Shown: positions 11,001 through 24,064 of the stretch, piece after piece
Layout: each line of letters opens with the position of its first letter
Position numbering within the stretch: the first letter of the stretch is position 1
NCBI GenBank assembly: GCA_008080745.1
Contig: SHMX01000001.1
Location: 210,001-242,000 of the forward strand
Length of the DNA stretch: 32,000 bases
DNA from: Candidatus Thorarchaeota archaeon
GTDB lineage: Archaea; Asgardarchaeota; Thorarchaeia; Thorarchaeales; Thorarchaeaceae
Direction: 5' to 3'
Notes under the pieces: generated by a model
What the model was told of the DNA's origin: nothing
Database searches by the model: none
Seen by the model: the letters and a program-made list of their open reading frames with translations, nothing else
Position numbers and translations under genes: made by a program

Positions 11001-12779
11001 TCAGACCTCAACAAGATTCAAAGTTACCACAAATTTTGCACCAAGATTAGGATTATCCTCCACTCGATTTTGGACCGAAATATTACCACCGTATTTTCTA
11101 ATCATCGAAGCTACAAGTGTAAGTCCAACTCCACCATAACGTCGACTCTTATCGAAAACAGACTGTTTCTTTGCATCACTTATTCCAGGCCCGTTATCCT
11201 CGATAATGAGGTCCACCGAATCATCTCTAGAAAAACATGAAATCCATACTTTTTTCTCGTCTTTGGGATTATGTCGTGCTGCATTCTCAAGCAAATTCCA
11301 AATCAATTCTCCAAGAAGGGTGTCAGCCTCTACATAGACGGGCCCATCAGGGAGGTCCAGATCTATTATAGCATTGTATACCCTCTTCAAAACAGCAGCT
11401 TTCTCATGGACCACACTAATCAGGTCAATCTCAGATTCTGGAAGGGCTGATAACTGACTGGCTCGCTTTACCTTTGTAATCAGTCGATTGCATCTTTGGG
11501 CAGCGTCAAGCACATCATTCCTAGCATCATCAATGTAAGATGTTGGAAGTTCGGAATCAAGAAGACCTGCTGAGGTGATGATTATTTGTAACTGATTGGC
11601 AATATCATGAGATAAGAGATCGAGATAAAACTGAACAGTTTCTTCTGCGTTCTTCTGTTTCGTAATGTCTGTAATCACTGCAAAGGTGCCTTGGAATTCA
11701 TTATTTGAGTCAAAGATTGGCATTGCAGAAACAACACTATGGATTACTTCACCCTGTTTACTAAGCCATTGTAATTCGTAGTGTTCAGATATTCCTTTTG
11801 TACGGTCGGTATGTTTTCTCCTTGCATCCGCCTCATTCATCGATAAAGCAAAGTCAGTCCACCTATTACCAACAATCTCATCTTGGTCGTATCCTAACAT
11901 CTCACAGAATGCCTTGTTGGTATAGATAAGAATACCATCTTCATCATCTATGACTAGACCATCATTCATAGTTTCTACAAGCATACGATACCGAGATTCA
12001 GTCTCTCCAAGAGCCTCTAGTTCCTGTTCCTGATGGGTAACATCTAGAAAATGAGCAACTGTTTTTACCGATCCATCACTCAAATGGATGACCTCAACAT
12101 TTACCTCAATCGTCTTTAATTCTCCATTTGGGGTCTCAATCTGTAGGTGATAAGATGAAGGAACATCAATTCCATCCTGTCTTTTCCTGAATATGGGTTC
12201 TAACTTAGCAATTTGTTCAGGTGTAAGAAATTCATCGAAACGATGACCTAGAGTTACTTCAGCCGGTCGCTCCATGACATCAACTGCCCTTTTGTTAACA
12301 TATTCAATTATTCCCTTGTCATCAAGTACCAGAATACCATCGTGTGAATAATCGATTATCACACTTTGGACTTCTCCTAACGATTCAACCGATGAAGTAG
12401 AATCTTGCCAGTCCTTCATTTCAACTACGACATAGAATCGATTAGTATCATTGTCATTTTTTTTGTAATGGATTTTTAGAACTGCAGAACTGGAATCAGT
12501 ATCATTTAGAAGTACAGGTAAATCGATTTCCGAGCCGGATTTTTTTAGTTTCTCAAACTGCTCTATTACAGAAGGATGATAATTTGTGTTAATAACATCC
12601 AATAATGTGAGAGAAGATATATCCTTCTCAGAAATATAATCAAAAATATTTCTAGCATATTGATTCATTTCTATGATTGATAGGTTCTCGTCTAAGAACA
12701 GAATTGCAATCGGAATATCAGCCAATTGAACTAAGGTGTCCTCTGAAGAAGTGATATTTCTCTTCGATTTCTTAGACAT
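11001..12779 (-). CDS. Cytoplasmic sensor histidine kinase with three PAS domains
   Basis: PAS S-boxes (YVNKRAVDVM, YTNKAFCEMLGY); H-box LLSHDIANQL; N-box NLLENAARH; DNGPGI; GGVGL. No TM segments. Confidence 0.92.
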   Translation of the reverse strand: MSKKSKRNITSSEDTLVQLADIPIAILFLDENLSIIEMNQYARNIFDYISEKDISSLTLLDVINTNYHPSVIEQFEKLKKSGSEIDLPVLLNDTDSSSAVLKIHYKKNDNDTNRFYVVVEMKDWQDSTSSVESLGEVQSVIIDYSHDGILVLDDKGIIEYVNKRAVDVMERPAEVTLGHRFDEFLTPEQIAKLEPIFRKRQDGIDVPSSYHLQIETPNGELKTIEVNVEVIHLSDGSVKTVAHFLDVTHQEQELEALGETESRYRMLVETMNDGLVIDDEDGILIYTNKAFCEMLGYDQDEIVGNRWTDFALSMNEADARRKHTDRTKGISEHYELQWLSKQGEVIHSVVSAMPIFDSNNEFQGTFAVITDITKQKNAEETVQFYLDLLSHDIANQLQIIITSAGLLDSELPTSYIDDARNDVLDAAQRCNRLITKVKRASQLSALPESEIDLISVVHEKAAVLKRVYNAIIDLDLPDGPVYVEADTLLGELIWNLLENAARHNPKDEKKVWISCFSRDDSVDLIIEDNGPGISDAKKQSVFDKSRRYGGVGLTLVASMIRKYGGNISVQNRVEDNPNLGAKFVVTLNLVEV

Positions 12780-12887: not shown

Positions 12888-14240
12888 TCAGCTTTTCTCG
12901 ATTTTCCTCCAAAATCGTGTCGCACTTCTCTGACGACCATATCCAATAAGATCATCCATTAATACAATCATTCGGTTCAACCAAGGCATATGTCGAACCA
13001 TCCAAAGAACCATTTTGTGAAGAACGTTGTTTGGTTTGTTGTAAGGGCAGCTACGAATGCAGTTTGAGCATTCACCACCATTTTGTACCCAGAAATCGTA
13101 ACAGCTCTCAACGTCCACATACCATTTCTTTACTCCTGGATTGTTAGATTTTGACGTTCCTTTCCAACTCTGTTCTTTATCATAGGGGATAGACTGTGAA
13201 GGGCAATCTTTTGCGCATCTTTTACAGGTTTTACAAAACCGGATAACAGAATCACAAAAACCCTTGTCGGGTTTATCGGGAATAAGAGGCATATCAGTTA
13301 GAATTTTAGCAAGTCTGACCCTTGGACCATATTCCTTTGTTATAAGTAAACCATGACGGCCGTATTGACCAAGTCCGGCATCAATCGCAAGAGGTACACT
13401 GAGTGCAACATCATTGCCGCAGGCAATTGCATGATATCCCATTCTTCTAATCAAAGAGGATAATTGAATCTCAACAAATGCCATCTTGGAATATCCTATA
13501 GAAGAGGCTGCCTGAGCAGCAAAAGCAGGTGATGCAGCAAGACCATCATAATCCATCTCGATAGCAATCACTATGGCCCGATTGAGTGTTTCTGGTACAT
13601 CATATGGTTCACCTTTTCTATCGACAGAATAAATCCACTTACGATCTAGAGGTGCAATTCCAACCAGAGACCCACCAAAGAGTTTTCCCGCCCTTTTGAT
13701 CAATTGGGTTAACTCGGAAGGATTCTCCAATTTTTTCTCATGTTTGCCTTCAAATCTCAAGATATCTGCTTCATGAACCAATCTACGAGAGTCGTACAAT
13801 GTCCAATTAGCCTGCGTGATTTCATGTTCCCATTGTGTGTACCCTGATATTCCCCTTGAAATCATATCCATTGCACCAGAATACACCGAATTGCCATAAT
13901 TATCAAAATTCGAGTCATTGTATACTCTGGTAAATATCATATCAGATTCAGGAAACTGTGATAGATTTTCAGATACTTCATAGGGATGAATTGATAATTC
14001 CGAATCGTGTTCAGAGCTGGCAGATGTCTTCTTTGTGGATATTTTTGATGCCGTAATAGCTCCCTTAGTACAAGCCCGTAGACAACTAAGACATTCCGTA
14101 CATCTCCCCAAATTATACGTGAGAGCGTGTGCGCCCTGGGTATAGATCAAGGGCGCATTCTCACCATGAATTCGTTGACAAGCCACTACACAGGCTTGAT
14201 TACATTTACGAGGGTCACAGAGGTCTTTATCGATTATCAC
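12888..14240 (-). CDS. Reductive dehalogenase (RdhA/QueG superfamily) with additional N-terminal ferredoxin-like domain
   Basis: SVPLAIDAGLGQYGRHGLLITKEYGPRVRL (corrinoid region), FCKTCKRCAKDCP and C...CSNCIRSCP. N-terminal CDPRKCNQACVVAC and CTECLSCLRAC. No twin-arginine signal. Confidence 0.85.
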   Translation of the reverse strand: MIIDKDLCDPRKCNQACVVACQRIHGENAPLIYTQGAHALTYNLGRCTECLSCLRACTKGAITASKISTKKTSASSEHDSELSIHPYEVSENLSQFPESDMIFTRVYNDSNFDNYGNSVYSGAMDMISRGISGYTQWEHEITQANWTLYDSRRLVHEADILRFEGKHEKKLENPSELTQLIKRAGKLFGGSLVGIAPLDRKWIYSVDRKGEPYDVPETLNRAIVIAIEMDYDGLAASPAFAAQAASSIGYSKMAFVEIQLSSLIRRMGYHAIACGNDVALSVPLAIDAGLGQYGRHGLLITKEYGPRVRLAKILTDMPLIPDKPDKGFCDSVIRFCKTCKRCAKDCPSQSIPYDKEQSWKGTSKSNNPGVKKWYVDVESCYDFWVQNGGECSNCIRSCPYNKPNNVLHKMVLWMVRHMPWLNRMIVLMDDLIGYGRQRSATRFWRKIEKS

Positions 14241-14419: not shown

Positions 14420-15508
14420 CTACTCTTTTTTAATATCATGAATTGGAAAAACCAACTTCTGCACCAGCCTAACATTATCCTTCACAACTCCCCAAGTTTC
14501 CTCATCATCCTCAAAAGGAGGACTCTGGATAGGTGGAGAATATTCGTTTCCAGAGATTACTGAGAGTACTGTGCCAGCACACCATAAAAAAGCCTCAGGG
14601 TGATATCCACCCCCTGAAACAACACCCAATTTTCCTTCACTCCAGCGATGTGCTGCATTATGGGTCCATTTGCTAGTGTAACGAATAATATCTGTAGTGA
14701 GTATCAGATGGGCCATAGGATCACGATAATGACCATCAAAGCCTGGAAGAAGAAATATGAACTCTGGTTTGAAAGAGTCAACTAAGGGTGGAACCAGAGC
14801 ATCAAAGGCGTATCTATACACGGCGTCTCCAGAATCCATTGGAAACGGAAAATTCACATTATATCCCAGTCCTGCACCAAACCCAATATCTTGAATGTAG
14901 CCATCATGGGGATAGAGCCATTCCGGATCTTCGTGAAATGATATCGTCAGTACCTCGGGGTCTTGATAGAAATACTCCTGAGTTCCATTTCCATGATGAA
15001 CATCCAGGTCAAGAATGAGCACTCTTGAAAAACCATTATCTTTCAATTTGTAGACAGCTGCGGCAATATCATTGAACACACAAAACCCCCCACCCCATTC
15101 ATACTTAGCATGATGAAATCCACCAGTAGGCGAATAGAAATGATCGCAATCTCCAGAGAGTATTGAGTTCACACCAGTAACTGTTGCACCACTAGTAAAT
15201 CTTGCATTCTCGTATATTCCTTGGAACCCAGGTGTGTCTATGTCGATATCGCCCACACCCGTTTTAGAGATTCGTCGTACTTCATCCAGATAATCAGGTG
15301 CATGAATTCGTTCAAGCAATTCCTCTGACAAGGGATGGGGTTTGATAGTAGAAATATTGTCAGCTGAAAGTAGTTGGATTTCTTTTAGGAAGTCACGTAC
15401 CATCTGGAATCTACCCACCCTGACTGGATGACTTTTTCCAAAATCAAAGGTTTCCATCATAGGATCCCAGAGAAAACCAACATTACATTTTCGAGGGGAA
15501 GGACTCAT
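14420..15508 (-). CDS. Histone deacetylase/AcuC-family Zn deacetylase
   Basis: GGFHHA, GFCVFND, LDLDVHHGNG, GFDGHYRDP, GGGY. Start placed at ATG 15508 (MSPSPRK) because the longer ORF overlaps the divergent gene. Confidence 0.92.
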   Translation of the reverse strand: MSPSPRKCNVGFLWDPMMETFDFGKSHPVRVGRFQMVRDFLKEIQLLSADNISTIKPHPLSEELLERIHAPDYLDEVRRISKTGVGDIDIDTPGFQGIYENARFTSGATVTGVNSILSGDCDHFYSPTGGFHHAKYEWGGGFCVFNDIAAAVYKLKDNGFSRVLILDLDVHHGNGTQEYFYQDPEVLTISFHEDPEWLYPHDGYIQDIGFGAGLGYNVNFPFPMDSGDAVYRYAFDALVPPLVDSFKPEFIFLLPGFDGHYRDPMAHLILTTDIIRYTSKWTHNAAHRWSEGKLGVVSGGGYHPEAFLWCAGTVLSVISGNEYSPPIQSPPFEDDEETWGVVKDNVRLVQKLVFPIHDIKKE

Positions 15509-15559
15509 TAGATGGTCATTTGCTACTGCATACTTATTAGGTTTCACAATAAGAATTCG

Positions 15560-17020
15560 GTGGTGCAAGATTTAGTGAAAATTCGCTCAATCGCAAGAGT
15601 GCCAACTCCTTCAGAAATATACTCAGTATATGTAAGACAACGGAAGGATGCAAGTGCTCAAATCTTTTCTTTAGATTATGGGGACAGACTTAGAGTATTT
15701 GATGCTAAGGGAACTCTAAGATCCACAATGAAGTGGAGTAGCAAAGTAAGATGCATCGCTGTTGCAGATGTCGAAGGAGAAGGCGATGACGCTCTGGTAG
15801 GCGGTGTTGGCAAGTATGTCCTTGTTGTGGACCAAAAAGGAAAGCAACTATGGAAAATTGTACTTGAAAGTCCGGTTATTGCTTGCGATGCAAGAGATGT
15901 TGATGGAGACGATGCAGCAGAAGTAGTTGTAGCACTCCAAAATAAGCGGGTAATCTTGTGGAATAATGATCAAGATGCGTTATTTACTCGTTCGATGGAT
16001 TCAACTATCGTGGATGTATGGTTAGAAGATATCACAAATGATACTGAACTAGAAGTCGTCACAGCGATGAGGAATGGCAATGTAACAATTGTCAGCTCAG
16101 CAGGTTATCTTCTCAAAGAAATTAGTCTAGGAGAAGAGATTACAACTTTTGCAGTATTAACATTTGGAGAAAGAAAACTCTTCGTAACAAGTAATCTCTC
16201 TAATACCCTACGGTTCTGGGACATTGAAGGTGACTTGGTGGATAAACTAGATATTGGTGGAAGACCAAGATCAATGGCAACAGGGGTGCCAGATGATATA
16301 TCCGATATCGCATATTTGGTAGTAAGTACCGATGAGAAGAAGATTAGTTTTTGGGAGGTTCAACGGTCTGGAAAGGCAAGTCGAACCGAACAGGTTGTTC
16401 TGCAACAAATTGGTTCAACAAAGGACACGGTATATCGACGTTCCATAAAGTGTGGAAATTGTGGTGCACCAGCATCTCCTGAGAGTCCGGTTTGCGATTC
16501 GTGTGGTGCTCAGCTTGAAATGATGGAAGAATATGTAATTGAGGAATACATCCAAGAGAGTATTGAATCAATCACAGCAAAACACCCTCGGATCAAGCTC
16601 AAAGATCTTGACCGTATTCTCAGAAGAACACTCCCACGTCCCGCAGCTTACAATCTGAGAAGAAGTCTTCAGACGATGATTCAGAGTGGTGAGATTGAGG
16701 GACACATTGACGGCAATGTGTTTGTTCGAACTGAGAAGCCAAAAATCGCAAGGTCTGACAGGCCTACGGAGAAATCGGTTAAAGAAACACGACAGATTCT
16801 GCAAGATTTGCTCGACAGAAAAGATTCCTTTGATATTGATCAGATTGAGAAGGAAACAGGAGTGGATCGAAAGATACTCAGACGAACACTACTGATTCTA
16901 TTAGGAGATGGAGTGATCGAAGGTTCCCTCACGGGACAAATCTTCACTCTTGATGATAAAAAGAAAGCAGAGGAGTTTATCCTTCGCTTTGATAGCGAAT
17001 TGAGAAATTGGATGCGATAG
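15560..17020 (+). CDS. FG-GAP/WD-like beta-propeller + Zn ribbon + two PCI-like winged-helix domains
   Basis: Repeats ADVEGEGDD, RDVDGDDAAE, EDITNDTELE; CGNCG...CDSCG; C-terminal IKLKDL...MIQSGEIEGHID and FDIDQI...LLGDGVIEGSL. Likely start GTG 15560/15563. No signal peptide. Confidence 0.75.
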   Translation: MVQDLVKIRSIARVPTPSEIYSVYVRQRKDASAQIFSLDYGDRLRVFDAKGTLRSTMKWSSKVRCIAVADVEGEGDDALVGGVGKYVLVVDQKGKQLWKIVLESPVIACDARDVDGDDAAEVVVALQNKRVILWNNDQDALFTRSMDSTIVDVWLEDITNDTELEVVTAMRNGNVTIVSSAGYLLKEISLGEEITTFAVLTFGERKLFVTSNLSNTLRFWDIEGDLVDKLDIGGRPRSMATGVPDDISDIAYLVVSTDEKKISFWEVQRSGKASRTEQVVLQQIGSTKDTVYRRSIKCGNCGAPASPESPVCDSCGAQLEMMEEYVIEEYIQESIESITAKHPRIKLKDLDRILRRTLPRPAAYNLRRSLQTMIQSGEIEGHIDGNVFVRTEKPKIARSDRPTEKSVKETRQILQDLLDRKDSFDIDQIEKETGVDRKILRRTLLILLGDGVIEGSLTGQIFTLDDKKKAEEFILRFDSELRNWMR

Positions 17021-17080: not shown

Positions 17081-19915
17081 ATGGACATTAGCAAGAGAAT
17101 AATCATTATCTTCGTTAGTGTGTCGCTGATTCCGATATTGTGTATATCGGCCCTTTCAGCATATAGCATCTTTAATGTATCAAATGAAAATGCAGGAGAT
17201 TCTGCTAATGCCCTCAGAAGTGAGGAGTTAGCAAATCTAGACAGATTATCAGATGATACTGCGCTCTTTATTGAAGAGAGGATGCAGAACTATATTGACG
17301 GAGTATTGATGATGGAGAAATATTGTGAGGATTTATTCAATAATAGATTGAATGCCTCACCCCAACATTCGTATTGGTGGGATTATGAAGAAGAGTTTGC
17401 TGAAACAGGTGAACTAGTGCCAAGTAGGCATTTTGAAGCAGATTATGATTCAAGTGACATCTCATTTGAAGTAAGCTGTTATTATATGCCCCGGGAGCAC
17501 TACGATACCCCCGGAGACCCGTTCGATCGAACAGCAGAAACTAATTATTTCATTGATATGTCGAGTAATATGGACAATGTTTTCAGGTCACTCCATGAGA
17601 TGAGTTCTGATTATATCTGGTTATACATGGGATTCAATCCAGATATCTGTGACAGCCATCTGTTTCGAAACTATCCATATGATAATCTCGAATACTTTTG
17701 GGATTACTATAACAATGGCAATGACTACGACCCAGTATTAGAGGACTGGTATTCGAATGCAGTAGATGCCACAGATGGGGAAGTAGCATTTACCAGCCCA
17801 TACGGAGATCCTTCAACTGGACTGGTAATATCAATGGGACGTCCAGTTCATTTTGATAATGGCACTCTTATTGGAGTGGTTTCAGCTGATGTTACACTTG
17901 ACACAATTCTTGCGAGTGTAGTTGACATCGAAGTCCTAGATACGGGATATGCATATCTCCTCAACTCCGATGGAAGTCCCCTCGCACATCCAGACATAAC
18001 AGATGAAGAACAGACTATCTACGAATTAGAGTTTGGTAGCTCAACGTCTTCTGAAGCTATAGCATTCGCAAATATCCTTGCAGATGCAGAGACACAGAGT
18101 ACTGGTCAGGTTGAGTTCACTAAGAATGGAGAACCTTGGATTCTTACATACAATCGAATTCCAAATACAGGATTCCTGCTTGCAATCGTGGTCCCCGTTT
18201 CAGAAGTGGTAGCACCGGCAAATGCAATTCTTGGACTTGTACTAGGACAAACTACAAACCTTACAATAATCCTTGGAGGAATTTTAGCAGTTGTAGCAGG
18301 TTGTGTCGCGTATGTGTCCTACAGACGAGCAAATTCGGTAGTTGAACCCATCGAGGAGATGACATCTCTTGTACAGAAAATGTCACGTCAAGATTTTACC
18401 AGAGGTATAACTGCTAAGGGAGCAATGTTTGAAGAAGTAGGAACAACCGTAGATGCATTGCTAAGTTTCCAAGAAGCATGCAGATTTGGTAATCAAGCCT
18501 TTGTCAGGGGTGATCTCAACAGAGCTCTGGCTAACTATCAGAATCTCTTGGAGATTAGCAGAAGATTGGATATCCCAGTTGGAGAACAGACCATGTGTTT
18601 GAATATTGGAAATGTCTTCCGTCAACGTGGAGATACTGGTAACGCAATCGAATACTATGAAAGAGCATTAGATATAGCAAAGGAACTTCTTGAGAAGGCT
18701 AAGATGGATGGTGCTGATGAGAGAGATGCAATGGTTCGCATTGGTTCCGTCTACCACAACCTCGCACTAGTCGAGATGGATAGAGGGAATTTCACCGAAG
18801 CACTCCAATATCTTCAGGATGCTGAAGCCATTGATCGAAGTCTCAGTAATGACAGGGGCCTAGCAAAACGATTTGATGCTATGGGTCTAGTCATGATGCG
18901 TCAACAACGTCACAGTCAAGCCCAATCAAAGTTCGATGAAGCTGAAAAGATGGCTAAACGTTCTGGATACGATAGGAGTCTGGCATACATCAACTTTCAT
19001 AGAGGAGAACTAAATGTGGACCAAGGCTTCTACGAGAAGGCTGAAGAATCCTTCAAGGCAGCAATAGACTATGGCAAAAGAGTAGAAGAATACGGTTTAG
19101 TTGTTCATGCACTCAGAGAGTTGGCTGATGTGATGGATAGACTAGGAAAACCAAGTCATGAGCTTCGTAGAGAGGCTGAGAGAATTCGAAGGTCCATGCA
19201 GTTCAAGAAGAGTGTCATCTTTGTGATCGATTACTCTGGAAGCATGCAGGCCCAAGGAAGGATAAAAGCAGCTATCACAGGTGCCAAAGAAATACTTGAC
19301 AGTCAGGTCAATCCCCAAGATGAGGTCAGTATCATTGTATTCAACAATACATACAGAGAAGTGCTACCATTAACCAAGAAAGGGGAATATCAAGACCCCG
19401 ATGACAGCCCAATAGTCAAAGCACTCGATTCCTTGAGATATCCAAACTACGCGACTGCATTTTATGACGCGTTGGGTAAGGCTCTACAAGAACTTGACAA
19501 GGTCGAGTCTAGTGAGCACCGTTGGATTATTGCCTTAACGGACGGACAGGACAACAGTTCAAAGATATTCTCACTTGATGCCCTAGAGGGAATCACTGAA
19601 AAGGATCGTTACAAGAAGAACCGACCTCTAACAATTGAGGGATACATTCGAGATAATCATCTAGATGTGAATCTCATCATCATTGGGGTTGGCGGTGAGC
19701 TGAAGTCTTATGTTGACAAGGAGATTGCTGGATCTAAAAGTGGTCGAATGACCTTTGAAGAGTTACTCATGTCAGTATGTGATAATATCCCACAGGGACA
19801 ATATCTCTCAGTAACAGATTCAATAGATGTACATTTGGATATACAGAAAGCATTCCAACAGGTTGGAGTCCTTATGGCACAACTGGAAGTTGGAGGGAGT
19901 ACTACAGACTACTAG
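17081..19915 (+). CDS. Two-TM receptor: dCache_1 - HAMP - TPR array - VWA (intact MIDAS)
   Basis: TM1 near the N-terminus; YDPxxxxWY...PYxD...GVVSAD dCache motif; TM2; EPIEEMT HAMP; TPRs (NIGNVFRQRGDTGNAIEYYERAL etc.); VWA FVIDYSGSM...TAFYDAL...LTDGQDN. Confidence 0.88.
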   Translation: MDISKRIIIIFVSVSLIPILCISALSAYSIFNVSNENAGDSANALRSEELANLDRLSDDTALFIEERMQNYIDGVLMMEKYCEDLFNNRLNASPQHSYWWDYEEEFAETGELVPSRHFEADYDSSDISFEVSCYYMPREHYDTPGDPFDRTAETNYFIDMSSNMDNVFRSLHEMSSDYIWLYMGFNPDICDSHLFRNYPYDNLEYFWDYYNNGNDYDPVLEDWYSNAVDATDGEVAFTSPYGDPSTGLVISMGRPVHFDNGTLIGVVSADVTLDTILASVVDIEVLDTGYAYLLNSDGSPLAHPDITDEEQTIYELEFGSSTSSEAIAFANILADAETQSTGQVEFTKNGEPWILTYNRIPNTGFLLAIVVPVSEVVAPANAILGLVLGQTTNLTIILGGILAVVAGCVAYVSYRRANSVVEPIEEMTSLVQKMSRQDFTRGITAKGAMFEEVGTTVDALLSFQEACRFGNQAFVRGDLNRALANYQNLLEISRRLDIPVGEQTMCLNIGNVFRQRGDTGNAIEYYERALDIAKELLEKAKMDGADERDAMVRIGSVYHNLALVEMDRGNFTEALQYLQDAEAIDRSLSNDRGLAKRFDAMGLVMMRQQRHSQAQSKFDEAEKMAKRSGYDRSLAYINFHRGELNVDQGFYEKAEESFKAAIDYGKRVEEYGLVVHALRELADVMDRLGKPSHELRREAERIRRSMQFKKSVIFVIDYSGSMQAQGRIKAAITGAKEILDSQVNPQDEVSIIVFNNTYREVLPLTKKGEYQDPDDSPIVKALDSLRYPNYATAFYDALGKALQELDKVESSEHRWIIALTDGQDNSSKIFSLDALEGITEKDRYKKNRPLTIEGYIRDNHLDVNLIIIGVGGELKSYVDKEIAGSKSGRMTFEELLMSVCDNIPQGQYLSVTDSIDVHLDIQKAFQQVGVLMAQLEVGGSTTDY

Positions 19916-19928
19916 GAGGTTGAAAAGA

Positions 19929-21383
19929 ATGGCACAAGGAATAGAAACCAAGAAGAAAGGAAGTTTTCAGAAGAATGTAATCATTACATTTCTGACGATA
20001 TCAATAATATCCCTTGCTGCAACTGGTGCAATCTCATTGGGCTTTGTCAACCTCATGGGAGACTATACTACAGTTGAGAGCACGGACGCGTTGGAGTCAC
20101 AGATCGAAACTAACATGGCGCTTACTGCACAGCAGAACGCACTTGTAATAAATCAAAAACTATCTAGCGCCGAGTCAATGGTTCTATCTATGGCTGAAGA
20201 ATGTGAGAGAATATTCTCTCCTGACTCAACATTTGAGCATAGAACAACATACTATGACTACTTCTTTGAGAATACAGAGGACGGTCCACATCCGAGTGAT
20301 GTTGCATTTGATCCTCGCTATGGTCTTAATGTATCTTGGACCTACAGTAGTTGGTATGTAGCTGGTTCAAACTCTACCAATTATGCAACCTATGAAACGC
20401 AGAATCAGGAACGCCTTGGACTGGTCTCCAACATGGACTATACATTCCAATCAATTCACAATCAGATGCCTGAATTTAGATGGCTTTACATTACCTTTGC
20501 AGATAATGGAATGTTCATCAACTATCCAGGTAGTGATTTGGGCGGCTCGGATCTTGCTCGAAACACAGAACCCTGGTATCCTACATTAGATGACTGGTAC
20601 ATCGAAATCGAGAATGGAGAGGGTGACATGGTTTTTGTCGACCCATATTACGATCCGATTGATCAGGTTCTGCTGATATCTATTGGGAAAGCCATCTACT
20701 TTGAAAATGGCACTCTCATCGGAATTATAGCAGGAGACATTACTATTGAGAGCATCAACGATAAAATCTTGGATGTAACCATTCTTGAAACAGGATATGC
20801 TTCATTGATTCTTCAGGATGGTTCAGTCATCGCTCATCCAGATTTGAGTCCCGAGGACTATGAATATGGATTGGTTCCTCTCTATCAGGTAGAAACAAAC
20901 ACTGATGCATCGAGGGCACTCTCACCAGATCAGATGGCCCAAATTACCTCGGGCCAGACAGGAATTCTTCGATACACCAAAGATGGAGAAGAGTATCTTC
21001 TTGCGTATACCTCAGTTGGCAAAGCAGGCTATATCTGTACAATATCGGTACCAGTCAGTGAAGTACTCGATGCTATTCCTGCTTTAGAGAACAGAATCGC
21101 TGAGGCTAATGTGGCAGTATCGACATTTATTATTGCCATAACAGTGGGAGGTATAATACTTGCAGGGGGTGCAGCAGTCGTAGTAGCCAGGCAAATAACA
21201 GGCCCTCTACAGTATCTGATGGACCTAGCAATGAAGAATGTCTCTGCGATGATCCAAGAAGCTCCTACCGACACCCTCGACCTTCAGGTGGATACCGAAT
21301 ACACTGGAAAGGACGATGAGATAGGAGAATTAGCCAGAGCGTTTCAAGGCATGCTGGATACTATTCGAGAAGACGAAATGTAG
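19929..21383 (+). CDS. Two-TM dCache_1 - HAMP protein with no output domain
   Basis: GGAGGT RBS before ATG 19929; TM1; WYPxxxxWY...PYYD...GIIAGD; TM2; ITGPL...DEIGELARAFQGM, then a stop 9 residues later. Confidence 0.88.
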   Translation: MAQGIETKKKGSFQKNVIITFLTISIISLAATGAISLGFVNLMGDYTTVESTDALESQIETNMALTAQQNALVINQKLSSAESMVLSMAEECERIFSPDSTFEHRTTYYDYFFENTEDGPHPSDVAFDPRYGLNVSWTYSSWYVAGSNSTNYATYETQNQERLGLVSNMDYTFQSIHNQMPEFRWLYITFADNGMFINYPGSDLGGSDLARNTEPWYPTLDDWYIEIENGEGDMVFVDPYYDPIDQVLLISIGKAIYFENGTLIGIIAGDITIESINDKILDVTILETGYASLILQDGSVIAHPDLSPEDYEYGLVPLYQVETNTDASRALSPDQMAQITSGQTGILRYTKDGEEYLLAYTSVGKAGYICTISVPVSEVLDAIPALENRIAEANVAVSTFIIAITVGGIILAGGAAVVVARQITGPLQYLMDLAMKNVSAMIQEAPTDTLDLQVDTEYTGKDDEIGELARAFQGMLDTIREDEM

Positions 21384-21395
21384 TGTAAAGGATGA

Positions 21396-23240
21396 GTGGA
21401 TGAGATGAGTACAGATCAATGGACAATCGAACGTTCAAAACTTGTCTATGGATTGGATCGCAATGATCTGCATTTCCTAGATATCGATGATGAAGGAAAT
21501 TTGCTCCTTCGCATTGGAGACCATACTATCTCTTTCAAAGAAATTACGGATCTAGTTAGAGAACAGAACGGTTCTTCCACTGGTTATACTTCGTCATTCA
21601 CTCTCCGTATGCCTCAACTGATTACATATCAGATGATGAAACTCAAAGCATCCTTTGCCCGTGCTATGAAGGAGGCTGATTATCAGGGCGAATTTAGTGC
21701 AGTCTACCCTGTGAAGGTAAATCAAAGGTATGATTGTGTTATGCCAGTACTTGCCTCAGATTCAAATTATGGGCTTGAGGCTGGTACTAAGGCAGAATTA
21801 TTCTTAATCAAGTCGGTGACCGAGAAAGAGAAACATCGGCTTATTATTTGCAATGGCGCAAAGGATCCCGAGTATCTGAAGAGTATTCAACAATGTGTAG
21901 AAGAGGGTTACAATCTCACTGTTTCAATTGAGTCATTCCACGAAGCAGAAATGATAGTAGAATTATTGGATCCTGAAAAATCCGCCATAGTTCTCAGAAT
22001 CAAGCCATATTTGATGGTGAGAGGGCATTGGTCACATTCAGCTGGGCGCGACTCCAAATTCGGACTTAGCATACATGACCTCTATGATGTGATTGAATTG
22101 TTGAAAGAGAAGGGTTTCACAAAATCAGTTACAACAATTCTAGGTCATGTTGGTTCACAGATTACAGCAATGGATGATTTTCATAAATTTGCCAAGTTCA
22201 TGGTACGAGTCTATCACGAAGTTCGAAAATTGGGTCTAACAGAAGTAAGAACTATAGATTTTGGTGGAGGTCTACCGATAGACTATACCAGTTCACATCC
22301 GCCAGACCTCATGAATCAATATGCTGATGCTTTAGTAGCTGGTATACTGGACGGAATTGAAGAAATGGGAGGGGAAATGAAACATCCCAACATACTCACC
22401 GAATCCGGTCGCGGAATAACAGCTTTAGGCTCAGCAGTAGTAGTGAAGATATTAGAGGTTCGCTCAGTATTTCCATCACCCTATCAAGAGATCAGTGAAA
22501 AACGTGATAATGAACGAGATGAATGCATTGCAAATATGAGAAAGGCTACATCAGTGGCCGAACTACTAGAATTATGGAGCGAATTTCATGCATTACACGG
22601 AACTTCCAATGGTTCTATGAGAGACCTTTTTGAAAATGAACTTCTGATTGGTGATGTACGAAGCGAACTCAGGAGACAGCTAGCCAGAATTGCTACTCCT
22701 GGCATTCGTCCAGAGAAGCTTGTAGAGAGCATCTGGCATCCAGATCACCTAGCAATCGGGAATTTTAGTGTCTTTAATGCTGCCTGTGACTATGTGCTTG
22801 TTAATCAGCACTTCCCCATAGTTCCAATTCAAGATCTACATGTCAGACCAGAAACCACTGTCAGACTCGTAGATATCACCTGTGATTCAGATGGTGAATT
22901 ATCACAATTTCATCGTAAAGGTGCAGGAGAAATTTGGTGGTCGAGAGACTATCGACCCTTGACCATGAGAACAGATGATATGGGACAGGGAATACCAGTA
23001 GGATATCTGAAGAATATCCAAGGCTCATATTTTGTAATCGGACTTACCGGTGCCTACCAGGATGTTATCGAGGCCGATCACAATCTACTGGGAGACTTGC
23101 CAGATGTGGAGATTGTAGTGACTGAAGAAGGAGACTGGAAGATTACTTGGACAGCTGGAGCTCAAAAGATGGAGGATCTGCTAGCAGATGCCGGATACGA
23201 AGGTTTTGATATTGACGAAGACCCCTATATGGCAGATTAA
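21396..23240 (+). CDS. speA: Biosynthetic PLP-dependent arginine decarboxylase (bacterial SpeA type)
   Basis: YPVKVNQ (PLP Lys), GLEAGTKAEL, CNGAKD, HVGSQI, DFGGGL, ESGR, DITCDSDG, GAYQD. Confidence 0.88.
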   Translation: MDEMSTDQWTIERSKLVYGLDRNDLHFLDIDDEGNLLLRIGDHTISFKEITDLVREQNGSSTGYTSSFTLRMPQLITYQMMKLKASFARAMKEADYQGEFSAVYPVKVNQRYDCVMPVLASDSNYGLEAGTKAELFLIKSVTEKEKHRLIICNGAKDPEYLKSIQQCVEEGYNLTVSIESFHEAEMIVELLDPEKSAIVLRIKPYLMVRGHWSHSAGRDSKFGLSIHDLYDVIELLKEKGFTKSVTTILGHVGSQITAMDDFHKFAKFMVRVYHEVRKLGLTEVRTIDFGGGLPIDYTSSHPPDLMNQYADALVAGILDGIEEMGGEMKHPNILTESGRGITALGSAVVVKILEVRSVFPSPYQEISEKRDNERDECIANMRKATSVAELLELWSEFHALHGTSNGSMRDLFENELLIGDVRSELRRQLARIATPGIRPEKLVESIWHPDHLAIGNFSVFNAACDYVLVNQHFPIVPIQDLHVRPETTVRLVDITCDSDGELSQFHRKGAGEIWWSRDYRPLTMRTDDMGQGIPVGYLKNIQGSYFVIGLTGAYQDVIEADHNLLGDLPDVEIVVTEEGDWKITWTAGAQKMEDLLADAGYEGFDIDEDPYMAD

Positions 23241-23275: not shown

Positions 23276-24064
23276 ATGAGTGAAGATAAGTTTGCAAAGG
23301 TTAGAGAGCTGTTAAGGGGAAAGAGAGTACTTGTAGCATTCAGTGGTGGAGTAGATAGTACAGTCTTAGCAAAGATTGCGGAACAGGAGTCCAAAGAGGT
23401 TTTACTTCTCAATGTAATAATGCCTACCGCACCAAGTTTTGAGGCACAAAGAACAGAAAGCATAGCTGAAGAAATAGGGGCACCTCTTGAAATTGTAACA
23501 TTTGATTGGTTAGGTCATGACAAACTAGTTGCCAATGATGAAAAGAGATGTTACTTATGCAAATTAGAAATTGGCAAGCTCTGGTTAGAGGTTGCAAAAA
23601 AGAGAGAAATGGATCTGGTAATTGAAGGCACCACCGCAACAGAGATCGAAGGACATAGACCGGGAGCTCAAGCCCTTCGAGAGCTTGAGATATTATCCCC
23701 GTTTCTTGAAGCAGGTATAACAAAGGAGGAGATACGAGATTTTGCAAGACAGCACAATCTCTCAATTGCAGAACTACCATCAATGGCATGCCTAGCGTCA
23801 AGATTTCCAACAAATACACAAATTACTGCTGAGAAACTTAGAATGGTAGACAATCTTGAGAATGCAGTACGTAAGCTATTTGATGTAGAATGTGTTCGAG
23901 TAAGATATCATGAAGGTCTAGCTAGAATCGAGGTAGGAAAGGAAGAAAGGAATAAGCTATTTGGTGTACAAAAATTGGATGAGATTCACAAAATTGGAGT
24001 AGCTATCGGATTCAAGTACATAACGTTTGATGTTCGAGGTTATCAAACAGGTTCAACTAGTTAG
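23276..24064 (+). CDS. larE: LarE-like PP-loop ATP-dependent sulfur transferase (TIGR00268 type)
   Basis: AFSGGVDS PP-loop, RCYLCK, RPGAQA, PSMACLASRFP, RVRYH, ARIEV. Confidence 0.88.
   Translation: MSEDKFAKVRELLRGKRVLVAFSGGVDSTVLAKIAEQESKEVLLLNVIMPTAPSFEAQRTESIAEEIGAPLEIVTFDWLGHDKLVANDEKRCYLCKLEIGKLWLEVAKKREMDLVIEGTTATEIEGHRPGAQALRELEILSPFLEAGITKEEIRDFARQHNLSIAELPSMACLASRFPTNTQITAEKLRMVDNLENAVRKLFDVECVRVRYHEGLARIEVGKEERNKLFGVQKLDEIHKIGVAIGFKYITFDVRGYQTGSTS

Follow-up and report, generated by a model that had tools for sequence, protein, structure and literature searches.

A probable two-paralogue Cache receptor of Asgard archaea with a TPR-VWA arm and no recognisable signalling enzyme

How does a membrane receptor pass on its signal when nothing in it resembles a kinase, a cyclase or a chemotaxis signalling domain? 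This question is raised by an open reading frame (ORF) on a contig of a Candidatus Thorarchaeota archaeon (SHMX01000001.1), of which we analysed a stretch of 32,000 nucleotides (hereafter the window; GC content ~40%). The 944-residue product of the ORF, which we call CTV, combines an extracytoplasmic dCache sensor with an array of tetratricopeptide repeats (TPRs) and a von Willebrand factor A (VWA) domain, an arrangement noted in an earlier reading of the window (the original prediction). To our knowledge, no extracellular sensors are commoner in prokaryotes than the Cache/HAMP receptors, all described types of which terminate in an enzyme or in the chemotaxis scaffold. With a confidence only a little above even, we read CTV as the output-bearing subunit of a conserved, enzyme-free transmembrane receptor, formed with its paralogue Cache2, that senses amines and signals through protein docking.

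Pfam placed dCache_1 (PF02743; 70.5 bits against a cut-off of 45) at residues 209–369 of CTV, between two transmembrane (TM) helices, with an MCP-like_PDC_1 match at 169–276, TPR_12, TPR_2 and TPR_1 spanning 469–690, and VWA_2 and VWA at 712–892 (49 and 42 bits). In CTV, neither Pfam (E ≤ 0.1) nor NCBIfam detected a kinase, MCPsignal, GGDEF, cyclase or phosphatase domain; the NCBIfam matches to sensor kinases and phosphodiesterases (FimS, HK_near_YfiR_like, GepA) fall on the TPR, HAMP-like or Cache parts, far under their cut-offs. Likewise, MCPsignal, HisKA with HATPase_c, GGDEF/EAL and Guanylate_cyc are absent from the 25 most frequent families across 55 relatives. These searches confirm the TM-dCache-TM-TPR-VWA layout without kinase, MCP or cyclase that had been proposed, while the HAMP domain of that proposal stands only as a matter of descent. 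The Pfam HAMP model (PF00672) scores 13.1 bits on CTV (E = 0.13; cut-off 25 bits), covering only AS1, the first helix, and AS2 continues directly as the first TPR helix. Relatives score 29–45 bits at the same place (P0147, 44.9; P0136, 32.5), with 21 of 55 members at E ≤ 1e-3, and the degenerate, sub-threshold segment after TM2 of CTV is a homologue of their bona fide HAMP.

The hydrophobic segments of CTV number two (~7–29 and ~391–415), with Lys and Arg flanking the N-terminal and post-TM2 sides, and Lys plus Arg make up only 3.7% of the loop between them. Two TM segments with positive-inside flanks would place the Cache domain outside and HAMP-TPR-VWA inside; the TPR-VWA arm is thus predicted to lie in the cytoplasm, in agreement with the location first suggested for the VWA domain.

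The MIDAS (metal-ion-dependent adhesion site) of this domain is complete, also as first read, with DYSGS at 717–721 (D717, S719, S721), T792 and D821. Across 68 homologues (20–68% identity), D717, S719, T792 and D821 are invariant and S721 is more than 90% conserved. An AlphaFold2 (AF2) model of full-length CTV, built from a 68-sequence alignment, has a mean predicted local distance difference test (pLDDT) score of 86.9; the HAMP region alone is weak, and would be dimeric. The VWA domain modelled by itself reached a pLDDT of 89.9 and a predicted template modelling score of 0.89, and Foldseek matched it to ordinary MIDAS-bearing VWA domains, namely ITIH1, BatB, CMG2, TFIIH p44, alpha2delta and integrin I domains (E down to 2.5e-11). 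A single-sequence search of the PDB with the VWA part gave no match; a profile search did. Near the C-terminus of the family (P0001 933–944; A1 column 938), an acidic residue is kept (Glu in 57 of 68, Asp in 4 of 68), which could be an intrinsic ligand of the MIDAS or of the TPRs. The aligned fungal and giant-virus-type proteins, described below, mostly end in '...VESL' (Gonapodya is an exception), and the motif is shifted in the Thor clade ('LEVGG').

CTV is a real and conserved protein. More than 120 full-length orthologues at 61–90% identity, on independent contigs from metagenome-assembled genomes and nearly all labelled Thorarchaeota, are collinear with it; together with the single open frame and the single copy of the gene in its own genome, they exclude an assembly chimera, so that the ORF stands as originally read. 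A search of 1.84 billion representative sequences returned 153 proteins at E ≤ 1e-30, of which ~100 share the layout at 20–45% identity. A scan of species-representative genomes gave 96 relatives, the best 80 of which are all Asgard (Thor, Heimdall/Hodarchaeum, Lokiarchaeum ossiferum, Promethearchaeum and Hermod) except for one contig labelled Bathyarchaeia. Our literature search found no paper describing the architecture, in line with the original failure to assign it to any named prokaryotic pathway, nor did we find one on the CTV/Cache2 family, which thus appears undescribed and is a variant on the known kind of Cache/HAMP receptor.

To place CTV in its genomic context, the proteins of the window were compared with 82 loci by tblastn. 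In all Asgard loci that extend far enough to include it (Thor, Heimdall/Hodarchaeales, Loki and others), the gene directly downstream of CTV is Cache2, a paralogue with a dCache sensor and a HAMP but no output domain. In the window, the two genes are 13 nt apart, and the GGAGG Shine-Dalgarno sequence before the Cache2 ATG overlaps the TAG stop codon of CTV (19913–15). We inspected eight representative proteins of 1,520–1,650 residues as candidate CTV-Cache2 fusions; most have four TM segments and a Cache2-like dCache before the CTV part, in the layout TM-dCache-TM-(HAMP)-TM-dCache-TM-HAMP-TPR-VWA, whereas the first sensor of P0217, P0257 and P0271 has no significant sequence match. Such fused forms provide a Rosetta-stone argument for a physical pair, and CTV and Cache2 probably form one receptor.

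The pairing also appears to be old. [quoted passage not shown] A tree built from the sensor regions separates CTV from Cache2 with a Shimodaira-Hasegawa-like approximate likelihood ratio (SH-aLRT) support of 99, and both sides hold Asgard and GVMAG-type members; therefore, the duplication predates the split between Asgard and GVMAG-type members. In a sensor tree, the Cache2 of locus L079 clusters with the CTV of that locus, and Cache2 proteins of Loki (L068/L069) are basal on the CTV side, placements that hint at gene conversion or independent duplication in these lineages. The Cache2 of L. ossiferum (L069 8614–10044) also matches Pfam VWA_N (2.2e-9), a model built on the N-terminal part of alpha2delta that is really the first half of a dCache domain.

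What the receptor might sense is suggested by its pocket. The best PDB sequence matches of the sensor are PctA (5LTX, 5.6e-12) and 3C8C (7.4e-12), and the CTV pocket consists of Y216, E221, W223, Y224, Y241 and D270. In the alignment to PctA, W128, Y129, Y144 and D173 are kept and E221 occupies the position of R126, so that CTV departs from the dCache_1AA motif (Y..R.WY...Y...D) by its Glu in place of Arg. In PctA, R126 hydrogen-bonds the carboxylate of the ligand, and it is not conserved in amine sensors (PMC10589655). Across the family, the residue at this position is Arg in 46 of 68 members ('YDPRCRxWY'), Glu in 13 and Asp in 2; Thor and Heimdall loci have Glu, Gln or Tyr instead, and Cache2 has Asp. 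The Cys between the two Args of 'YDPRCRxWY' (A1 column 220) is present in 37 of 68 members and in more than 90% of the eukaryotic/GVMAG clade.

This substitution goes together with a neighbouring gene. A SpeA-like biosynthetic arginine decarboxylase (ArgDC), with the motifs 'YPVKVN' (pyridoxal-phosphate Lys), 'GGGLP' and 'CDSDG', follows Cache2 in the window, and an ArgDC gene adjoins, on either strand, all of the non-Arg (mostly acidic) Thor and Heimdall-group loci with enough flank. It is adjacent in all Thor and most Heimdall loci, and the link survives rearrangements. No adjacent ArgDC was found at the Arg-type loci with enough flank (Loki L068–L070 and the Heimdall paralogue L076). Glu or Asp in place of the carboxylate-binding Arg, next to ArgDC, makes a cationic amine a likely ligand; this suggests that the Thor/Heimdall subfamily senses an amine such as agmatine or a polyamine, and that other members sense amino acids.

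The third conserved component lies 60 nt upstream of CTV and encodes a WD40-like beta-propeller protein with a Zn ribbon. Its homologues adjoin the pair in Thor, Hodarchaeales and Loki (E 1e-15 to 1e-26 in phmmer and HMM searches), convergent and downstream in Hodarchaeales, and downstream on the same strand in Loki. The solved proteins nearest to the propeller profile are WD40 proteins (2ymu at 1.8e-13, Gbeta, LST8). Judging from orthologues, the true start of the gene is probably near 15572–15575, ~20 codons later than in the longest ORF; as longest ORFs, it and the divergent histone deacetylase (HDAC)-like gene overlap head to head by 57 nt. The L. ossiferum locus also encodes, ~1.4 kb past the propeller gene and after an M29 peptidase gene, a eukaryote-like signalling protein in which a Roadblock/LC7 domain is joined to a small GTPase of the Ras/Roc type (L069 12644–13642).

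Structure prediction of the CTV arm (residues 465–944, with Mg) together with the propeller protein, using our own alignments, supports binding, with a score of 0.72 against 0.00 for the best of three controls. That mark is reached by 58 of 80 solved complexes and by 2 of 110 mismatched pairs, counts that are rough here given our own alignments and the added Mg. At least 66% of contacts are shared between the runs, and the propeller has a pLDDT of at least 83. The confident contacts are made by CTV residues 686–704, a helix that connects the last TPR to the first strand of the VWA domain, and by loops from successive blades on the top face of the propeller, where WD40 propellers usually bind peptides or helices. 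Among the interface residues of the propeller, Y37, Y56 and S77 are 91–97% conserved across Thor, Heimdall and Loki homologues. We know of no similar complex on which the prediction could have drawn.

Table 1. Features of the receptor locus, in window coordinates, with the basis of each assignment.
Feature	Coordinates	Strand	Details and basis
HDAC-like deacetylase, class II	14420..15568	-	Divergent from propeller gene; conserved neighbour in the Thor clade only
Partner: WD40-like beta-propeller, Zn ribbon, winged-helix-like tail	15512..17020	+	480–500 aa; CxxC..CxxC at ~314–334
CTV (TM, dCache_1, TM, HAMP-like, TPR, VWA)	17081..19915	+	944 aa; Pfam, orthologues, AF2 full-length model
TM1 of CTV	17099..17167	+	Residues ~7–29; hydropathy and charge flanks; N-terminus with K5, R6 predicted inside
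Extracytoplasmic dCache_1 sensor	17168..18235	+	Residues ~30–385; Pfam, alignment to PctA 5LTX, column counts
TM2 of CTV	18251..18325	+	Residues ~391–415, then YRR inside; hydropathy; AF2 helix 378–435
Degenerate HAMP of CTV	18329..18490	+	Residues ~417–470; AS1 VVEPIEEMTSLV, AS2 EEVGTTVDALLSFQEACRFG; homologous to relatives' HAMP
TPR solenoid	18491..19135	+	Residues ~471–685; 11 AF2 helices (479–687); Pfam TPR_12 1.2e-22, TPR_2 1.6e-15
TPR-VWA linker helix	19136..19195	+	Residues 686–705, DRLGKPSHELRREAERIRRS; predicted docking site for the propeller protein (complex prediction)
VWA with MIDAS, predicted cytoplasmic	19196..19888	+	Residues ~706–936; Pfam, conserved columns, AF2, Foldseek
Cache2, output-less paralogue (TM, dCache_1, TM, HAMP)	19929..21383	+	~484 aa; dCache_1 4e-20, HAMP 1.2e-6; pocket 'LDDWY'
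ArgDC, SpeA-like biosynthetic arginine decarboxylase	21396..23240	+	12 nt after Cache2; PRK05354 2.7e-103, full length

From these observations we propose that CTV and Cache2 would form a heteromeric receptor, in which ligand binding in the dCache pockets would act through TM2 and the HAMP region on a rigid TPR-VWA arm. The arm would then change its hold on cytoplasmic partners, the propeller at the TPR-VWA linker helix and a putative acidic ligand at the MIDAS, and the signal would leave as protein assembly, release or sequestration instead of phosphorylation or a second messenger. Chemoreceptors, which scaffold CheW and CheA, offer an analogy for such an output. In the Thor/Heimdall subfamily, the likely ligand would be a cationic amine (agmatine or a polyamine) and the likely target polyamine synthesis, which could be controlled by way of the propeller protein's winged-helix tail or directly on ArgDC. 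The original prediction had proposed an output by metal-dependent protein-protein interaction: a non-enzymatic output and a protein partner agree with our domain searches and the complex prediction, whereas the contact that we predict, at 686–704, lies away from the MIDAS. It had overlooked the conserved pair and triad, the adjacent ArgDC with the charge-reversed pocket, and the members outside prokaryotes.

Among bacterial dCache_1-HAMP receptors (PctA/B/C, Mlp24, Cache histidine kinases), the same sensor module stands in the same TM-dCache_1-TM-HAMP topology, most ligand-contact residues are shared, and the output of the chemoreceptors is likewise non-enzymatic scaffolding. CTV differs in having TPRs and a MIDAS-bearing VWA domain where these have MCPsignal, kinase, cyclase or phosphatase domains, in the Glu that its clade carries for the carboxylate-binding Arg, and in its pairing with an output-less paralogue. 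A cytoplasmic MIDAS-bearing VWA domain in archaeal regulation has a precedent in ArnA-ArnB of Sulfolobus, where the partner is a Zn-finger/FHA protein (PMC6509490). Both systems share such a VWA domain and a partner with a Zn ribbon, and the ArnB homologue vWA2 (5a8j) was matched at 1.3e-9. ArnB, however, is soluble and has a beta-sandwich and a four-helix bundle, and phosphorylation and an FHA domain control it; the CTV domain is tethered to a receptor through TPRs, and its partner has a propeller and no FHA domain.

Several points weigh against the amine-sensing, protein-docking receptor that we favour. The MIDAS, the most conserved feature of CTV, is outside the predicted propeller interface and is left unexplained by it. 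The interface helix of CTV is conserved only within the Thor clade, and searches for a propeller homologue came up empty at several Heimdall loci, on GVMAG contigs and at chytrid loci; the propeller may therefore be a lineage-specific accessory instead of a universal output. The HAMP is degenerate in CTV and the rest of the Thor clade and canonical in most of the family. At L081 (Promethearchaeia), the pocket carries Asp with no ArgDC in view, and the association between pocket and ArgDC rests on perhaps two independent evolutionary contrasts. Finally, the function, ligand and MIDAS partner of the family are things that we infer.

An alternative in which the arm acts on the enzyme directly would account for the unoccupied MIDAS. 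The arm would bind the adjacent ArgDC, with a surface Asp or Glu seated on the MIDAS, and would sequester or activate it at the membrane, triggered by external agmatine, polyamine or arginine, with the propeller as an accessory. The persistence of ArgDC beside the receptor through rearrangements and a MIDAS that is free in the predicted propeller complex both fit, and E. coli offers an analogy in its lysine decarboxylase LdcI, a partner of the RavA-ViaA (MoxR-VWA) system. Against it, the MIDAS is invariant also in the Loki, GVMAG and chytrid members, which have no adjacent ArgDC; therefore, the MIDAS ligand should be more universal, and we consider direct enzyme control unlikely.

Equally improbable, in our view, is a static membrane scaffold in the manner of BatA/BatB, in which the Cache domain would be structural or adhesive and no output would be switched. 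Bat proteins are, like CTV, membrane VWA/TPR proteins, and the VWA domain of CTV matches BatB (3ibs; 2.4e-11 with a sequence profile, 4.3e-11 with Foldseek) and the BatA-like 4jdu; the lack of an enzymatic output and the degenerate HAMP of the Thor clade also fit a scaffold. Bat proteins, however, have no Cache or HAMP sensor, differ from CTV in domain order and topology, with the VWA domain close to the N-terminal TM, and occur in MoxR operons, whereas no MoxR AAA+ gene is present in the 32-kb window, the part of the genome searched for one. Moreover, the dCache domain conserves its ligand-contact residues, which vary together with the adjacent enzyme gene, and the HAMP is canonical in most of the family.

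The adjacency and conservation of the propeller and VWA genes, with a model that supports binding, might also recall an integrin, the propeller being an FG-GAP head of the integrin-alpha type docked on the MIDAS face of the VWA domain. Weak Pfam matches of the propeller to FG-GAP_3 and BBS2_Mid point the same way. The nearest solved structures are those of WD40 proteins, with no integrin alpha chain in the best 60 of 123 PDB matches at E ≤ 1, and the confident contacts lie on the helix before the VWA domain, on neither the domain nor its MIDAS. We thus found no support for an integrin-like head and regard the pairing as very unlikely.

A kinship with alpha2delta and CACHD1 comes to mind since these, like CTV, hold dCache_1 and VWA in one membrane protein. 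The dCache of CACHD1 (8s7c) was matched at 7.5e-10, and the VWA domain of alpha2delta-1 at 4e-9 with the whole-family profile and 2e-19 with that of the eukaryotic/GVMAG clade. In alpha2delta, the VWA domain forms an insert within the dCache and lies entirely outside the cell, and HAMP and TPR are absent (PMC8915833), a contrast that the original prediction had drawn correctly; in CTV, it is C-terminal, after TM2, HAMP and TPRs, predicted to be cytoplasmic, and not inserted. A special kinship was not supported, as the whole-family VWA profile ranks ITIH4, 8s05 and BatB above alpha2delta. With the eukaryotic/GVMAG-clade profile (A5 against the PDB), alpha2delta-1 scores 72 bits, 8s05 69 and ITIH4 67, which is a lead only, and with a profile that includes Thor members ITIH4 is far ahead. 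An extracellular VWA adhesin of alpha2delta-like topology, for which the shared domains and that marginal lead might speak, is rejected on topology (the TM segments are exactly two, their flanks follow the positive-inside rule, and TM2 is separated from VWA by HAMP and TPRs) and, with an assembly or annotation artefact, which the collinear orthologues and the single open frame argue against, we give it almost no credence.

The family extends beyond archaea and is not only prokaryotic. A group labelled 'RCR' shares 25–32% identity with the nearest Asgard member and lies on contigs of 29–34% GC that are rich in ORFans and carry U-box, C2H2, LRR, RFC and photolyase genes. Its protein P0189, named "viral metagenome" in UniRef, is 100% identical to the product of a gene on IMGVR_UViG_GVMAG-M-3300023179-27, and two further GVMAG contigs carry relatives; the viral assignment is based on the IMG/VR names, the UniRef label, the low GC content and the gene content.

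Searches seeded with the 'RCR' clade further returned full-length members in at least 13 zoosporic fungi: Zopfochytrium, Cladochytrium, two Phlyctochytrium, Polyrhizophydium, Siphonaria, Irineochytrium, three Chytriomyces, Obelidium, Podochytrium and Gonapodya. Both fungal genes that we examined, those of Zopfochytrium and Gonapodya, contain introns, have a GC content of 53% and lie among ordinary fungal genes. Two TM segments are present in all three fungal proteins checked, and the MIDAS and a canonical HAMP are kept in 11 of 11 aligned. The fungal family member P0307 (Podochytrium sp. JEL0797, 1122 residues), annotated 'Centrin-1', carries EF-hand families; either its gene model has been merged or the EF-hand fusion is real. 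It has been published that fungi lack dCache_1AA and that in every eukaryotic dCache_1 protein a VWA domain is inserted in the dCache (PMC8915833); the fungal members of this family conflict with both statements. The main text of the Mycodnaviridae paper mentions neither these genes nor Cladochytrium, Zopfochytrium or Gonapodya, and Chytriomyces hyalinus appears only in the legend of a supplementary figure on a capsid-gene contig.

In the full-length tree, the Asgard proteins (48) and the GVMAG-like and fungal proteins (36) form the two sides of one branch (SH-aLRT 100), and the fungi are a clade within the latter side. The best tree rooted with the paralogue places the eukaryotic/GVMAG clade beside a Heimdall subgroup (support 90), and an approximately unbiased (AU) test does not reject Asgard monophyly (p = 0.29); an earlier AU rejection (p = 0.0001) was discarded because it was confounded by the L079 paralogues. 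A scenario in which the CTV/Cache2 pair arose in Asgard archaea, reached eukaryotes around eukaryogenesis, survives in zoosporic fungi, was captured by giant viruses and possibly sourced the dCache-VWA of alpha2delta/CACHD1 is one that we entertain but think doubtful.

Other genes around the module are also conserved in part. Whether the HDAC-like gene is linked to the receptor is uncertain. As an acetylpolyamine amidohydrolase (APAH) it was rejected, its nearest solved relatives being HDAC6 and HDAH with no APAH-specific signal, and we do not count it as evidence for polyamines. Upstream on the minus strand, 12888–14240 encodes a 450-residue protein that matches the model of a reductive dehalogenase subfamily (TIGR02486, 3.9e-64, over the cut-off) with 4Fe-4S motifs, kept upstream of the module in many Thor loci, and 11001–12779 a PAS-PAS-HATPase_c sensor histidine kinase with no TM segments, syntenic in several Thor loci. 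Directly after ArgDC, the plus strand encodes at 23276–24064 an ATP-dependent sacrificial sulfur transferase of the LarE type (TIGR00268, 1.2e-70), and many Thor loci share this synteny.

What is new in this family, beyond its layout, is the predicted interface between the propeller and the arm, the fusion forms and the WD40 nature of the propeller, together with the presence of the same architecture and pair on GVMAG contigs and as native, intron-bearing genes of chytrids. The link between the pocket residue and ArgDC gives a concrete, testable hypothesis for the ligand. If the doubtful reading of an Asgard origin were true, the pair would be a true Asgard-eukaryote signalling module, and would contradict both the published rule of the inserted VWA domain and a bacteria-only origin of eukaryotic Cache domains. 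A TPR-VWA docking arm, a receptor of two paralogues and a predicted propeller adaptor would together be an undescribed way to carry a signal across the membrane, and the conservation of the family across Asgard classes, including the cultured Lokiarchaeum ossiferum, bears on the signalling machinery of the archaeal ancestor of eukaryotes.

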